A DNA stretch of 64,000 nucleotides from an uncultured Lachnospiraceae bacterium (GTDB lineage: Bacteria > Bacillota > Clostridia > Lachnospirales > Lachnospiraceae), in assembly GCA_910584325.1 (NCBI GenBank), contig CAJTZH010000001.1:12328-76327 (forward strand), in the 5' to 3' direction. Within the stretch, counting starts at the first letter, position 1. Each line of letters opens with the position of its first letter. The translations under genes and the position numbers were made by a program. The notes under the pieces were generated by a model. That model saw only the letters and a list, made by a program, of their open reading frames with translations, ran no database searches and was not told the DNA's origin. Positions 722 to 31,810 of this stretch are shown piece after piece.

Positions 722-2488
722 CTATCTGTCATCCATGGCTAATTCAAATACTTTGCCCAGGAAATTCAAATACGCTCTATCGTCGTTACTCCATTTTCTC
801 GCCGACGTGCTTCTTTTATAAAAAGCAATATATCCCTCATGATGCCGGTTACTCATACGGTAAAAAATCGCAGACGTAATGTTACGTTCCTTCATGTATT
901 GATATGCCGCCGGATATACCATCTCCACATCCGCGACATTGTTAACGACCGCGATGCCGTTCTCGTTAAACGCGCTCTGGAAATTATCCTTATCTACAAA
1001 TTCTATAGACCTTGGCATATCGTCAGGAATTTTCTTCCACCCCATCCCAATCTTATTCTTATCTCCGTAGAAAATGGTAATCTCATCCAAATCCATCGTC
1101 AAGGCAATTTCCTCAAACGCTGTCTCATACGTCATTATCTGTTTATGAAGGAAAAAGTCTAATATCCTCAGTACAAGTTTCTCTTTGTCCTTCTTCTGCT
1201 GCGGAACAACTTTATTGGCAGTCTCTATCTCGCCATGCAGTACGTCGCCATGAATCTCCGGCGTATAAATAATATAGCGGTTCTTTCCCTTCTTTTTGGC
1301 ATTGTAAAGCATCTTATCCGCAATTTTAAACAAATCCTCATAATTATCCGAATGCGCCGGATAAGACGCCACGCCCACGGAACAGGTAAGGTCTACATTT
1401 TCTTTTTTTCCTTTATATGCCCATTCTATATTAGAACGGACGCTTCGCAGAACACCGCGCAATTCCGAATGGTTTTCTATCTTCTCCAGAACAATCATCA
1501 GCTCATCACCGCCGATACGTCCGATAACACCCTTTTCTCCGATTGCCTCTTTTAAAATACTTGCCGCCGTGACCAAAACCTCGTCACCAAACATATGCCC
1601 GAATGTATCGTTGATATTTTTGAAATTATCCAGATCAAGAATACACAAATGTACCGGAACCTTCGGCTTCGACGCAAGCAGATTCTTAACATAATCTGTA
1701 ATCGCTTTCTTATTCAGCACATCCATCGCCGCGTCTTTGCTTGCCTCGGCAAAATAATTAATCTCTTTCTTCTTGGTATGCTGATTCACCACAGAAATGC
1801 AGCCGATAACCTTACGCTCTCTCGAATGATTGAGTATCGTCTTCCCCTTAATCAGATGCATATCCATCGTCTTATTCAGAGAAAACTTGGAAGAAAGCAA
1901 TTCGTATCGGAAACTCCTTGTTCCCCGCCTGATATCCTCACACAACGCATCAAACTCACTCTCATACTGCTTATCCACATAATGATTCGATTGAATATCT
2001 TCAATGAACTCCGGCAGCGTCCCGCTGAACAAACTGACCGTCTGCTTATTGCCGCCCATAAACATCTTAAAATCGCCCTCATCGATATTGTAAATAAACA
2101 AAAATTCATCAAGCAGTCCAAAAAATTCTCCATACTCCAGATTGGTATTATTGATATCGCTTAACTCTCTCTCCAACGCCTGTATATCCTGAATATTCAC
2201 ATTGATAAGCTGCTCTCCGTTTAATTCGACGGTATTGTATTCCAGGTCGGCAAGAATCCACCGGTATCTTCCATCCTGTCTTCTAATACGGTAAGCAATC
2301 ACATTATGTCCGTCTTCCGCCAGCTCGGCTACTGCCTGAGACAGCCTTGAAAGGTCCTTCGGATGGGCGCTCTTTGCCAGTGAAGCAAAACTGTCTAGTC
2401 CAACATATTTATAAAAATTCTCATCTGCATTCTTAATCTGAAGCAGTTTGTCAATTGTAACCGAACCTGTGTTAAACTTTGCCATCAA
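722..2488 (-). CDS. GGDEF-domain signalling protein (diguanylate cyclase family) with a PAS-like N-terminus and an extra C-terminal domain
   Basis: 588 aa. Central LDLDNFKNINDTFGHMFGDEVL...GRIGGDELMIVL is a GGDEF-domain signature, with the motif variant GGDEL. Confidence 0.85.
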   Translation of the reverse strand: MMAKFNTGSVTIDKLLQIKNADENFYKYVGLDSFASLAKSAHPKDLSRLSQAVAELAEDGHNVIAYRIRRQDGRYRWILADLEYNTVELNGEQLINVNIQDIQALERELSDINNTNLEYGEFFGLLDEFLFIYNIDEGDFKMFMGGNKQTVSLFSGTLPEFIEDIQSNHYVDKQYESEFDALCEDIRRGTRSFRYELLSSKFSLNKTMDMHLIKGKTILNHSRERKVIGCISVVNQHTKKKEINYFAEASKDAAMDVLNKKAITDYVKNLLASKPKVPVHLCILDLDNFKNINDTFGHMFGDEVLVTAASILKEAIGEKGVIGRIGGDELMIVLEKIENHSELRGVLRSVRSNIEWAYKGKKENVDLTCSVGVASYPAHSDNYEDLFKIADKMLYNAKKKGKNRYIIYTPEIHGDVLHGEIETANKVVPQQKKDKEKLVLRILDFFLHKQIMTYETAFEEIALTMDLDEITIFYGDKNKIGMGWKKIPDDMPRSIEFVDKDNFQSAFNENGIAVVNNVADVEMVYPAAYQYMKERNITSAIFYRMSNRHHEGYIAFYKRSTSARKWSNDDRAYLNFLGKVFELAMDDR

Positions 2489-6656: not shown

Positions 6657-7508
6657 TTACTGCGCCATTTCTGCTATCAGATTTAAAATGAAGCCATAAT
6701 ACGCTTTTTTAATGTTCAATCCGTTGCTTGAAAGCTCCGCATTGAGGTCGCCGTTATCGTCAGAAATTGATTTATTGACGTTGAGGAACCGGATACCTTC
6801 ATACTCAGACAATAACTGATTCAGTTTTGTCACATCATCATTATTAATCGCGGTATTATCTTTCGCCTCATACGCTGACGTTACAGGAAACGTTGAAATT
6901 ACATAAACCGTTGCGTTCGGAAGTTTCTCGCGCACGCCGTTAATCAACGTCTTATAACTTTCAAACACTTTATCGCCGTTGTTGTTTTCGTTATTCAAAT
7001 CATTAATACCGATTTCAATAAATACTTTATTCGCATTTGACGACGCTACGGTTCCAAGACCGTTGGATACCGCCTTTCCAATCGTCCAGTTTTCATTAAA
7101 CACAAGCTTCTTTTTGTCGATAAAGCCGTACAAATCAATTCCCGATATAAATGTATCTCCTATAAAAACGGCATCATCAAAAAACGACTCGTTCGCAAAC
7201 TCTTCCTCGGCAGGCGCCTTTACAATGTCGCTGGAAACTGTCGTTGGTTCCTCGGTCGTCGTCTCCGGCTCCTGCGTCACCGGCTCCGTTACCTCCTGCG
7301 TCTGTACCGGCGTTGTCGTCTCTACCGGTGTCGTTGTTTCCTCCGGCTTCTTCTTTTTATCCGGCTTGGCTCCCACGGCTTTTACAATCGCAACAATAAT
7401 CGCAATAATGATAATCAGAACAACTATCATCAGATATATCAGCTTTTTGTACTTATGCCATGCCCGCTGCATCTTGTTTCTCTTAATATTTCTGTTCATT
7501 GCATTCAC
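6657..7508 (-). CDS. Membrane-anchored SGNH/GDSL-like hydrolase with a Thr/Pro/Glu-rich linker
   Basis: N-terminal TM (LIYLMIVVLIIIIAIIVAIV), linker PEETTTPVETTTPVQTQEVTEP, then FIGDTFISG...IEIGINDL blocks. Confidence 0.7.
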   Translation of the reverse strand: MNAMNRNIKRNKMQRAWHKYKKLIYLMIVVLIIIIAIIVAIVKAVGAKPDKKKKPEETTTPVETTTPVQTQEVTEPVTQEPETTTEEPTTVSSDIVKAPAEEEFANESFFDDAVFIGDTFISGIDLYGFIDKKKLVFNENWTIGKAVSNGLGTVASSNANKVFIEIGINDLNNENNNGDKVFESYKTLINGVREKLPNATVYVISTFPVTSAYEAKDNTAINNDDVTKLNQLLSEYEGIRFLNVNKSISDDNGDLNAELSSNGLNIKKAYYGFILNLIAEMAQ

Positions 7509-29693: not shown

Positions 29694-29861
29694 ATGGACA
29701 AACAAATTACAAGATGTCCATTATGCGGCAAACGCGCCTGCGATATTAAGGTTGAGAGCGAGACTGATAATCTGGATTTTTATGTTGAGTTAAAATGTCC
29801 CAACTGTAAAAACATTGTCAAGATTCAATACTCCCGCTGTATTTCATCCATCGCAAACTAA
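29694..29861 (+). CDS. Small zinc-ribbon protein, Com-like (two CxxC pairs)
   Basis: 55 aa from ATG 29694 after GGGAGGGG: MDKQITRCPLCGKRACDIKVESETDNLDFYVELKCPNCKNIVKIQYSRCISSIAN. The CPLC...CPNC architecture and length resemble phage Mu Com-type zinc fingers. Confidence 0.6.
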   Translation: MDKQITRCPLCGKRACDIKVESETDNLDFYVELKCPNCKNIVKIQYSRCISSIAN

Positions 29862-29942: not shown

Positions 29943-29971
29943 TTGACATTCGAACATATGTTTGTTATATT
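29943..29971 (+). promoter_or_regulatory. Promoter P2 with a LexA (SOS/Cheo) box in the spacer
   Basis: TTGACA (-35), a 17-nt spacer, TATATT (-10). The spacer holds the same CGAACATATGTTTG (29951-29964). The 16-nt TTCGAACATATGTTTG is identical to P1. Confidence 0.75.
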
Positions 29972-30084
29972 ATAAACATGAAATTTCACTTTGACATATC
30001 GATATGTTACTTTTGGACATTGAATGAATTGAACAATCATTATACAGAACGCTATCCAGCAACGGGTCTTATAAGACACCAAAT

Positions 30085-30139
30085 GGCGGAAGCAGGACAA
30101 TTCTCTACAGAATTTTCCATGCTTCCGCCTTTTCTGTTT
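30085..30139 (+). terminator. Strong intrinsic terminator inside the leader between P2 and the first large CDS (candidate attenuator)
   Basis: GGCGGAAGCAGGACAATTCT-CTAC-AGAATTTTCCATGCTTCCGCC (about 19 bp with two small bulges) followed by TTTTCTGTTTG. Confidence 0.75.
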
Positions 30140-30212
30140 GTCTGACATTCATTCAATTTCCTACCAACAATCAACAAACAAAAAATTATAAAAAGTAAAG
30201 GAGAACAAAACT

Positions 30213-30836
30213 ATGAACAATTACGAATTAGAAATTCAATTTACAGAGGACGCCTTAAAGGCAATTTACGCAGCAGGAGAAAAGATTATCATTACAAAGG
30301 AAGTTGCCGGAAGTAAGGGTAAGAGCGTATGTTGGGTTTCCACCCTTCCGTTCCTCAACAACTCCGTGAAATGGACCGAAGAATACATGCTCTACGCATC
30401 AAGGGAAGAGGCTATGAACGGCGCAACCATCAGCAAATTATCAGACGTGGACGCCATCTCGGAGGTTATTTACGACTTTGATAACGCCATCTTTGATAAT
30501 GCGCACACTTCTTCCGATGTCGGCAAAAACGAATACGGTCTGTCAAACCAGATGGACCAGTACAGCTACCTGACATTCGGCCTTGCCCAGAAGGTAACCG
30601 TAAACGGAGCTCGTACGGAAGGCAGACCAATCAACGCTGTTACGCTTCCATACAATCATACCGCAACATTCTCACCGATTGAAAAGGTGCGTGTATGTCT
30701 CGCAAATGACTTAAATAACGGCATGGTTATTACAAAGGAATTCAGCACTGCCATTGATGTTACTTACAGCGGCACGGAAACAAAGAAGACCATTGCGTAC
30801 GACAACACAAAAGGCATGTTTGTACCAATAGGCTAA
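30213..30836 (+). CDS. Hypothetical protein, 207 aa, no recognisable family
   Basis: Good SD (AAAGGAG, 9 nt, ATG). Hydrophilic and beta-rich-looking, with no signal peptide or TM. First CDS downstream of P2 and the leader. Confidence 0.65.
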   Translation: MNNYELEIQFTEDALKAIYAAGEKIIITKEVAGSKGKSVCWVSTLPFLNNSVKWTEEYMLYASREEAMNGATISKLSDVDAISEVIYDFDNAIFDNAHTSSDVGKNEYGLSNQMDQYSYLTFGLAQKVTVNGARTEGRPINAVTLPYNHTATFSPIEKVRVCLANDLNNGMVITKEFSTAIDVTYSGTETKKTIAYDNTKGMFVPIG

Positions 30837-30906: not shown

Positions 30907-31164
30907 ATGAATTTTGACATTTTAGATACAGACCAAAATCTGATTCAGCTTAGATGCAATAATATCATTTATATGGGTAATATCGCCGGGAATAACAGAA
31001 GCTGGTATAAGCTCACCGGTAATGTTACGCAGAATGACCAAGCAGTCGTCCGGGCCATATATCAGCCTGCTTCATGGAGAGCCGGTACCCATCCGTTTAA
31101 TCCGGTTATCTCTGTAGATGTAAACCCGTTAGCAAACGGCGACGTTGATGTCTATATTGATTAA
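30907..31164 (+). CDS. Hypothetical protein, about 85 aa, no recognisable family (start uncertain)
   Basis: The frame is open from GTG 30874, which lies inside the SD; the first ATG is at 30907. No TM or signal peptide. The frame ends 32 nt before the GH25 start. Confidence 0.5.
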   Translation: MNFDILDTDQNLIQLRCNNIIYMGNIAGNNRSWYKLTGNVTQNDQAVVRAIYQPASWRAGTHPFNPVISVDVNPLANGDVDVYID

Positions 31165-31195
31165 TCGTTTCATTTTGAATGCGGGGGAGATAAAC

Positions 31196-31810
31196 ATGAG
31201 CAAAATAGGAATTGATGTTTCTTCATATCAGGGAAAAATTGATTGGGCAAAAGTAAAAGACAATGGAATCGAATTTGCAATTATCAAGATTATCCGAAAA
31301 GACTTATATCCGGATAATCAATTTGAAACCAATTGGAAAGGATGTAACGATTGCGGAATCACCATTCAGGGCGTATACAATTATAGTTATGCGGACTCGG
31401 TACAAAAGGCCGAAAATGACGCGAAAGAAGTGATTAAGATTCTGAATGGCAGGAAAGCAATGGTGTGGTTCGATTCGGAAGACGACTGTCAAAAAAATCT
31501 TGGTCCGAAACTGATATCCATTATCAATGCGTATGCAGCCGTTATTCTAAATGCAGGATTGCAGTTTGGCGTATACAGCGGAGAATGGTTTTACAAAACG
31601 TATATTCAATCCCAGGGCAGCCTGAATTACCCGGTATGGATTGCAAATTACGGAAATAACACCGGTAAATTAGAACCCGTGCATGAACCAGAAATTGCCG
31701 GAATGGTCGGATGGCAATACACTTCGATGGGAAAAGTAAATGGAATATCCGGAACTGTTGATATGAATATCTGGTATGATGATATACAAAACAGGAATCC
31801 TCAAAAATAA
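31196..31810 (+). CDS. GH25 muramidase (lysozyme), catalytic domain only
   Basis: MSKIGIDVSSYQGKIDWAKVKDNGIEFAIIKI...GVYNYSYA...WIANYG...GWQYTS is a GH25 signature. Start at ATG 31196 after GGGGGAG. No signal peptide and no cell-wall-binding module. Confidence 0.85.
   Translation: MSKIGIDVSSYQGKIDWAKVKDNGIEFAIIKIIRKDLYPDNQFETNWKGCNDCGITIQGVYNYSYADSVQKAENDAKEVIKILNGRKAMVWFDSEDDCQKNLGPKLISIINAYAAVILNAGLQFGVYSGEWFYKTYIQSQGSLNYPVWIANYGNNTGKLEPVHEPEIAGMVGWQYTSMGKVNGISGTVDMNIWYDDIQNRNPQK

Follow-up and report, generated by a model that had tools for sequence, protein, structure and literature searches.

We wanted to investigate what decides whether transcription that starts at a DNA damage-inducible promoter enters the potentially lytic gene cassette behind it. 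The locus lies in a stretch of 64,000 nucleotides of contig CAJTZH010000001.1 from an uncultured Lachnospiraceae bacterium (this whole stretch is called the window below). The cassette is on the plus strand and is embedded in a minus-strand polysaccharide locus. It comprises a 55-aa zinc-ribbon gene behind promoter P1, a second promoter (P2), a leader of about 240 nt (29972-30212), and three cargo genes that encode a 207-aa protein, an 85-aa protein and a GH25 muramidase (Table 1). A preliminary description of the DNA had proposed that the leader adds a second regulatory layer to SOS control, namely attenuation or antitermination mediated by protein, translation or RNA, or else that P2 mainly makes a small RNA (sRNA). 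We propose that the leader is a protein-controlled transcription gate, at which an SOS-induced Com-like protein would read the cargo open past a terminator; we give this reading an even chance of being right. The core of the leader (30053-30139) is, as far as comparison of sequences can tell, one copy of an RNA motif fused to an intrinsic terminator.

Folding and covariation analysis, which the preliminary description had suggested as a check, showed that the leader is structured beyond chance. The minimum free energy (MFE) of 29972-30212 was -59.3 kcal/mol, compared with -34.0 +/- 3.9 kcal/mol for 200 dinucleotide shuffles (z = -6.56), and none of the shuffles was as good (0/200). The terminator consists of a G+C-rich hairpin directly before a U-run. 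We compared it in ten distinct leader variants, the window's own included, which came from two genomes of the genus and from contigs with cargo homologs at 68-89% identity. It was present in 10/10 leaders, with a conserved lower stem (GGCGGAAG/CUUCCGCC) and an upper stem whose pairs covaried, both sides having changed. The strong terminator of the preliminary description was thus found in its place and conserved. A simple terminator scan of the window did not list the hairpin 30085-30129, because its stem has internal mismatches. We did not find any conserved promoter between the terminator and the cargo, either by promoter scan or in the homologous leaders. Every homolog has the terminator between its SOS promoter and the cargo, with no conserved promoter after it, which makes a second, termination-level layer of control the natural reading of the locus.

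The piece that we regard as functionally central, 30053-30084, is missing from the four features of the preliminary description; it lies between them and abuts the terminator. It has the family form UAYCNAGCAAY, then GG-NNN ... N'N'N'-A-CC (hairpin P3), then AAAU, and the AAAU linker joins P3 directly to the terminator stem. In P3, 92.7-93.6% of the cells were paired and 3-4 of the 5 pairs had compensatory changes. The covariation score was 0.38-0.62 vs 0.15-0.25 in shuffles (reached by 0/500), and slid controls scored at most 0.21. The variants were GGGUC/GACaCC, GGAGC/GCUaCC, GGAGU/ACUaCC, GGAAC/GUUaCC and GGAUC/GAUaCC. A small 3-bp hairpin of the motif, GCU/AGC (labelled P2, like the promoter), was rejected, as it was broken in 11/22 sequences and did not covary. 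All ten leaders keep the stretch CUAUCCAGCAAYGGGU..AAGACACCNAANGGCGGAAG together with the terminator and the core of a promoter-proximal palindrome, palB; no sequence conservation is seen in the spacer from palB to the motif. Where the cargo homologs are 58-59% identical, the LexA box is missing along with the zinc-ribbon gene and the motif.

The preliminary description had also suggested a scan for known riboswitch or leader families. A scan of the window with the covariance models of Rfam 15 at a permissive E-value gave no match near a gathering score; the best was sroB in the promoter region (29 bits vs a gathering score of 44, E = 0.52), and eight related loci gave no match. The motif is an RNA family absent from Rfam and previously undescribed, and we found no description of the zinc-ribbon/motif/terminator module in the literature. 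We collected 25 instances of the motif, spanning at least seven families of the order and one outside the order. In 23 of the 25, an open reading frame (ORF) for a 50-70-aa zinc ribbon lies just upstream and has its stop codon at -27 to +268 nt relative to the motif, and a hairpin with a U-run follows the motif immediately in 23/25, with differing sequences.

The link between motif and protein was also seen with a model of the RNA alone (R2), which contains no protein information. We ran it on 150 genomes across the class and 150 in the family. It matched one genome of the class sample (1/150, outside the order) and five of the family sample (5/150), other than that of the window. All six matches lie 3-35 nt after a Com-like zinc-ribbon ORF or overlap its last codons, and two of these six ORFs had not been reported by protein search. 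An exact-letter pattern gave no match in 400 genera of the family, because the letters of the window clade are genus-specific; the wider family surfaced only through the protein. Matches of the same pattern in Joint Genome Institute (JGI) metagenome contigs (n = 21) were judged to be chance, because none continues with GGCGGAAG.

Some arrangements of the motif stood out as observations in their own right. Tandem motifs follow one zinc-ribbon gene in L082 (three, 1682-1973) and in L071 (two, 1708-1904), and the first two copies in L082 are without a U-run terminator. In L058 and L065 (G005:C41), from the same genus, the locus is rearranged: an A_deaminase-like gene comes first, then a LexA-box promoter with the zinc ribbon, then a gene for a putative polytopic membrane protein of an unrelated kind, and last a terminator with no more than the 3' half of the motif (CACUAAAUGGCGGAAG). 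In L075 (G745:C49) the zinc-ribbon gene is almost the same as in L069, but the gene directly after it, where the motif would be expected, is transposase-like (judged by eye); this looks like an insertion into the switch.

The candidate trans-acting factor is the product of the P1-driven gene. Alignment of 20 members of its family (A5) showed a Cys4 ribbon (CxxC ... CPxC) in proteins of about 50-70 aa, in which C8, C11, C35 and C38 are invariant. An AlphaFold2 (AF2) model had four short strands (pLDDT 72.8) and gave nothing significant in a fold search of the PDB; a profile search of the PDB with the alignment gave only a weak match to eS27 (E = 0.014). When A5 was compared with Com of phage Mu (L086:769-954) by hhalign, the probability was 96.5% and the E-value 7.3e-10 over 31 columns covering both knuckles. 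By this profile comparison, which aligns the whole ribbon, the family is a remote homolog of Mu Com. In the relative L073, PF10122 (Zn_ribbon_Com) was the sole Pfam match below 0.001, at 22.7 bits against a gathering cut-off of 22.9; tblastn of L073 against a phage collection gave no match.

Homologs of the zinc ribbon turned up by six-frame profile search outside the genus, in 7 further genera of the family and, beyond the family, in 11 genomes from five families of the same order. Nearly all have the motif, a hairpin and a U-run after the zinc-ribbon stop codon. The usual order in these relatives is ImmA/IrrE peptidase, zinc ribbon, motif with terminator, Sigma70_r4 protein, which is the regulatory region of integrative and conjugative elements (ICEs) or prophages. 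In L070 and L078 the order resembles that of the window: LexA-box promoter, zinc ribbon, motif with terminator, then a peptidoglycan-hydrolase or SH3 protein. L072 has a second small Cys4 ORF (CPVC...CMKC; 1762-1920, minus strand) on the same strand as the Com-like gene and just upstream of its LexA-box promoter.

Mu Com is a translational activator (PMC6483171). It binds a CC(N)2-3GAG hairpin directly beside the inhibitory hairpin of mom, and com is located directly upstream on the same transcript (PMC6483171). In the Mu sequence we located the Com site at 876-900 of L086, inside com and 8 nt before the mom start. In both systems a tiny Cys4 zinc ribbon is encoded immediately ahead of the gene that it regulates or is proposed to regulate, on one transcription unit with it, and a short conserved sequence with a hairpin is found directly 5' of an inhibitory hairpin, so that the order regulator gene, RNA site, inhibitory hairpin, regulated gene is the same. 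The motif of the relatives (UACCGAGCAACGGAG) also has CC..GAGCA..ACGGAG in common with the Mu site (CCUGCGAGCAUCCCACGGAG). The relatives carry UACCGAGC (spacing 0) and, nearby, GCCGAG or GCCGGAG, and the inhibitory hairpin adjoins; the window has UAUCCAGC. The two systems differ in that the inhibitory hairpin is here a terminator with a U-run, whereas in Mu it hides the start codon, and in that the hosts here are Clostridia, whereas Mu-like phages are found in Proteobacteria.

The scheme that we propose is as follows. DNA damage would remove LexA from P1 and P2. By default, transcripts from P2 and run-on transcripts from P1 would end at the terminator. The Com-like protein would meanwhile build up from P1 and bind the motif as the RNA emerges, next to the 5' arm of the terminator stem on its 5' side and probably extending into that arm. 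The terminator would then be kept from forming, and RNA polymerase would enter the genes for the 207-aa protein, the 85-aa protein and the GH25 muramidase. The outcome would be a delay or threshold, i.e. a coherent feed-forward gate, on a potentially lytic cassette. The sequence features, the SOS boxes, the conservation and covariation of terminator and P3, the strict coupling of motif and zinc-ribbon gene in the genomes and the remote homology of the protein to Mu Com are shown by our data; two parts of the scheme we infer, that the protein binds this RNA and that the effect is antitermination. Among the forms of control named in the preliminary description the protein-mediated one is favoured, because the motif 5' of the terminator is coupled to an adjacent Com-like gene.

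The same protein and motif could serve a different step. As Com is a translational activator (PMC6483171), the Com-like protein might bind the motif and act after transcription, on translation or stability of the downstream mRNA or of its own, with the terminator being incidental. A helix that encloses the terminator and forms only in read-through RNA could likewise be a processing or stability element. However, the cargo ribosome-binding site (RBS) lies 60-130 nt past the motif in unconserved sequence, with no conserved structure hiding it, and the neighbour of the motif is a terminator hairpin with a U-run (23/25 instances) and not a start codon. We therefore assign a low probability to post-transcriptional action.

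It is also conceivable that nothing opens the terminator. A fixed small fraction of the SOS-driven transcripts could pass it into the cargo, as in colicin operons with a terminator ahead of the lysis gene, and the motif would serve the zinc-ribbon mRNA in 3'-end formation or stability. The terminator forms without a factor (dG -28.5 kcal/mol plus U-tract), in most relatives motif and terminator make up the 3' end of the zinc-ribbon transcript, and two leaders have no zinc-ribbon gene nearby, all of which would agree with a constitutive attenuator. A plain terminator, however, does not need an invariant single-stranded segment of 11 nt and a covarying bulged hairpin; the window keeps the motif though its zinc-ribbon ORF has its own promoter about 190 nt upstream; and tandem motifs (three in L082, two in L071) are typical of regulatory sites. 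We consider constitutive attenuation unlikely. The SOS colicin operons do share with the locus a LexA-repressed promoter, a terminator that limits the lysis function and delayed release after DNA damage. They differ from it in that the host here is Gram-positive, the terminator stands ahead of the whole cargo, and there is a dedicated small protein with an RNA motif.

Several observations weigh against the protein-controlled gate. The window protein passes no Pfam or curated cut-off and has no match to PF10122, and its homolog in L046 scored 10.5 bits, so that the putative Com link of the window protein goes by way of profile comparison through relatives. The window clade has CCAG where the relatives have CCGAG, i.e. 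the Com-type GAG determinant is not kept. No zinc-ribbon gene was found in L048, where the sequence covered extends about 2.5 kb to each side of the cargo gene, or in L016, where it extends about 3 kb. The gate model gives no role to the invariant palindromes or the enclosing helix. The direction of the effect is suggested solely by the default strength of the terminator and by the way Com acts, and these do not distinguish antitermination from enhanced termination or from 3'-end stabilisation of the protein's own mRNA.

We also looked for an opening of the terminator by RNA alone. In the window clade no mutually exclusive antiterminator pairing was found, either in folds or as a duplex of P3 with a distal segment (z > -0.6), which argues for a trans factor. 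This sets the locus apart from the Firmicute SacY/LicT ribonucleic antiterminator (RAT) systems. With SacY/LicT-RAT, HutP, GlpP, PyrR and TRAP the leader shares an RNA element that overlaps or abuts a leader terminator and, as proposed here, a protein that decides on read-through; the folds of those proteins are unrelated to a 50-70-aa zinc ribbon. A RAT-like arrangement occurs only in one sub-family of the relatives (L068, L076, L077, L082, L083 and L092), where the 5' strand and loop of P3 are complementary to a distal segment with a U-run about 95 nt after the motif (z -2.2 to -7). The distal pairing would form a second, long-range terminator enclosing the first hairpin, and P3 would be its antiterminator.

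Two further systems were compared. Lambda PR'-tR' with Q resembles the locus in having a strong promoter and a short RNA that is terminated by default (the 194-nt '6S' transcript), a small phage-type factor, here a candidate one, for reading into lysis genes, and conserved DNA elements at the transcript start. Q, however, binds DNA at the promoter, travels with the polymerase and is unrelated in sequence; the conserved element here abuts the terminator, which points to local RNA binding, unlike Q. The Cys_rich_KTR family (PF14205) matched L083 with 23 bits (cut-off 25.5) and the window protein with 14.9 bits, all below the cut-off, and it shares the setting in ICE or prophage regulatory regions of Firmicute mobile elements. 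To our knowledge this family has no known function.

The preliminary description had also drawn attention to an ATG at 29978, at the predicted transcript start, which opens a 55-codon frame ending with TGA at 30143-30145. The frame exists in the window and, as in L016, crosses the terminator, which would speak for attenuation coupled to translation of a leaderless ORF. In L018 and L052 the zinc-ribbon ORF itself reaches into the motif and stops 11 nt short of the terminator stem, and ribosomes could interfere there. However, the frame has only 11 codons in L017, L046 and L047 and only 9 in L018, begins with TTG in a different frame in the G001-type leader, and is absent in L048, i.e. it is conserved neither in frame nor in length. 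The frame in which the conserved core is read differs between the window and L016, and the P3 loop has 1-nt indels. As the core frames differ and the ORF is not kept, conservation acts at the nucleotide level. An ORF that the homologs do not keep as a protein gives no support to translation-coupled attenuation. We give it next to no probability.

The order of elements in L018 and L052 also bears on the suggestion that P2 mainly yields a trans-acting sRNA of about 160 nt. Such an RNA would fit the strong promoter and terminator and the compact fold (z -6.6). In these two leaders, however, a single LexA promoter is followed by the palindromes palA and palB, then the zinc-ribbon ORF, then the core with the terminator, and then the cargo. 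This layout ties the palindromes to the promoter and the core to the terminator, so that the RNA of about 165 nt named in the preliminary description is no conserved unit. In other genera the motif is part of a 3' untranslated region, the spacer between palB and the motif is unconserved, Rfam gave no match, and the leader occurs once in the window's own genome. An sRNA as the main product of P2 is accordingly quite improbable.

If the gate is protein-controlled, the locus may represent something larger. It is possible, at a little under an even chance by our estimate, that what we see in the window is a single domesticated copy of a regulatory module, so far undescribed, that is widespread among Clostridial prophages, conjugative elements and SOS lysis cassettes. 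In this module, Com-like zinc-ribbon proteins would be sequence-specific RNA-binding antiterminators that act on a dedicated cis-RNA motif composed of UAYCNAGCAAY, a bulged hairpin and a terminator. This would add a new class of antiterminator protein and a new class of RNA motif, and the Mu Com fold would be used in the control of transcription termination as well as of translation. The single-example Com/mom paradigm would be extended to a large family with a different output. The putative control point stands between the ImmA-type immunity module and sigma-like activators in the relatives, and ahead of SOS cell-wall hydrolase cassettes here. Zinc-ribbon ORFs of 50-70 aa are usually uncalled and the motif is in no library, so that this putative control point of the mobile elements of gut Firmicutes has escaped notice. 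An antiterminator of this kind would explain the delay of lytic or transfer genes after DNA damage, and synthetic biology in Gram-positive bacteria would gain a protein-RNA switch that is very small and portable.

Table 1. Positions in the window of the promoter, leader and cassette features.
Feature	Position	Strand	Sequence or content	Remarks
LexA (SOS) box inside promoter P1	29617-29630	+	CGAACATATGTTTG	P1 drives the zinc-ribbon gene
Zinc-ribbon gene, candidate trans-acting factor	29694-29861	+	55 aa, Cys4, CPLC...CPNC	driven by P1
Promoter P2	29943-29971	+	TTGACA (29943-29948), 17-nt spacer, TATATT (29966-29971)	11/12 matches
LexA box in P2 spacer	29951-29964	+	CGAACATATGTTTG	read directly
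palA	29979-29988	+	TGAAATTTCA, 10-bp perfect palindrome	at predicted transcript start
palB	29994-30007	+	ACATATCGATATGT, 14-bp perfect palindrome	12-nt core CATATCGATATG at 29995-30006
Outer enclosing helix, 5' arm	30019-30029	+	ATTGAATGAAT	exact complement of 30147-30157
Inner closing helix, 5' arm	30044-30049	+	ACAGAA, pairs with UUCUGU in the U-tract (30132-30137)	MFE folds
RNA motif, 5' segment	30053-30063	+	UAUCCAGCAAC, family consensus UAYCNAGCAAY	invariant columns, alignment A6
P3 hairpin of the motif	30064-30080	+	GGGUC / GAC(A)CC, 5 bp, bulged A at 30078	covariation
AAAU linker	30081-30084	+	AAAU, from P3 directly to terminator stem	nearly invariant in A6
Intrinsic terminator	30085-30139	+	hairpin 30085-30129, U-tract UUUUCUGUUU 30130-30139	hairpin dG -28.5 kcal/mol
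Outer enclosing helix, 3' arm	30147-30157	+	ATTCATTCAAT	beyond the U-tract
RBS and first cargo gene	30200-30836	+	GGAG (30200-30203), 207-aa protein (CDS, coding sequence, 30213-30836)	
Second cargo gene	30907-31164	+	85-aa protein	85-96 aa across copies
Third cargo gene	31145-31810	+	GH25 muramidase	Pfam Glyco_hydro_25 4.6e-28, PHROG endolysin 1.3e-39

The 11-bp long-range helix of the preliminary description was confirmed as a pair of exact complements. Its 3' arm lies beyond the U-run, so that the helix can form only in read-through RNA. We used an alignment-free test, because MAFFT cannot align the helix arms: for each leader the best duplex between the segment before the core and the segment after the terminator was compared with shuffles. 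The z-scores were -3.4 for the window, -3.4 for L017, -2.7 to -2.8 for L046 and L047, -4.9 for L048 and -3.5 for L016, and the value for L049 was weak (-1.9). The arm sequences differ lineage by lineage; equivalents of the inner helix are ATCACAA:TTGTGAT in L017, AATGACA:TGTCATT in L048 and GATCAG:CTGATC in L016. L018 and L052, in which the core comes after the zinc-ribbon ORF, have no enclosing helix. That each lineage keeps a helix of different sequence argues that the enclosing helix is real.

The perfect palindrome reported at 29994-30007 (palB) was likewise present, and its 12-nt core CATATCGATATG was invariant in 10/10 homologous leaders, with variable flanks. A second one, palA, occurs in every homologous leader but L048. 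Even where the zinc-ribbon ORF stands between palB and the terminator (L018, L052), palB remains promoter-proximal. As RNA hairpins both palindromes are weak, and their invariant loop letters argue for a DNA site; most likely they are an operator for some dimeric DNA-binding protein. palB is single-copy in this genome, and its further occurrences in the genus are chance matches inside genes; we therefore rejected it as a regulon-wide operator. No helix-turn-helix regulator common to the neighbourhoods of the homologous loci was found.

In a promoter scan, P2 was the top-scoring promoter-like site in 28-32 kb of the window. The spacers of P1 and P2 contain an identical type of box (CGAACATATGTTTG), which is kept in the homologs; a P2-type promoter with a LexA box was retained in 9/10 homologous leaders and was degenerate in L016. 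In the same genome CGAACAAAGGTTCG (CGAAC-N4-GTTCG) lies 30 nt upstream of recA, and several CGAAC/CAAAC-N4-GTTTG boxes lie upstream of lexA. The SOS reading is sound, because the same box type precedes recA and lexA in this genome.

A search of genome contigs with the 207-aa protein alone gave one locus, L016 (JAMPBI010000073.1). This contig is labelled 'Alistipes sp.', is identical to G007:C281 and is probably mis-binned. Its cargo gene is frameshifted, and with a degenerate LexA box and no zinc-ribbon gene the copy looks to be decaying.

As for the cargo, the 207-aa protein had no Pfam match in the copy searched. Its AF2 model was all-beta (pLDDT 93.3, pTM 0.90), and Foldseek gave no significant match to it in the PDB. 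Neither the 207-aa nor the 85-aa protein, both of which were examined, has a hydrophobic segment; as this holds for the 85-aa protein, the cassette has a lysin and no recognisable holin. The family of the 207-aa protein comprises 67 clusters, some with a weak match to PF27136 'RhiA'. In many loci the homologous gene is followed by one for an A_deaminase-like protein of 570-670 aa, and in some of these loci a GH25 gene also comes after. Upstream of lexA (G000:C63, about 6950-7060) we observed at least four LexA-type boxes within about 110 nt, and this packing suggests that lexA may be under unusually tight autoregulation.

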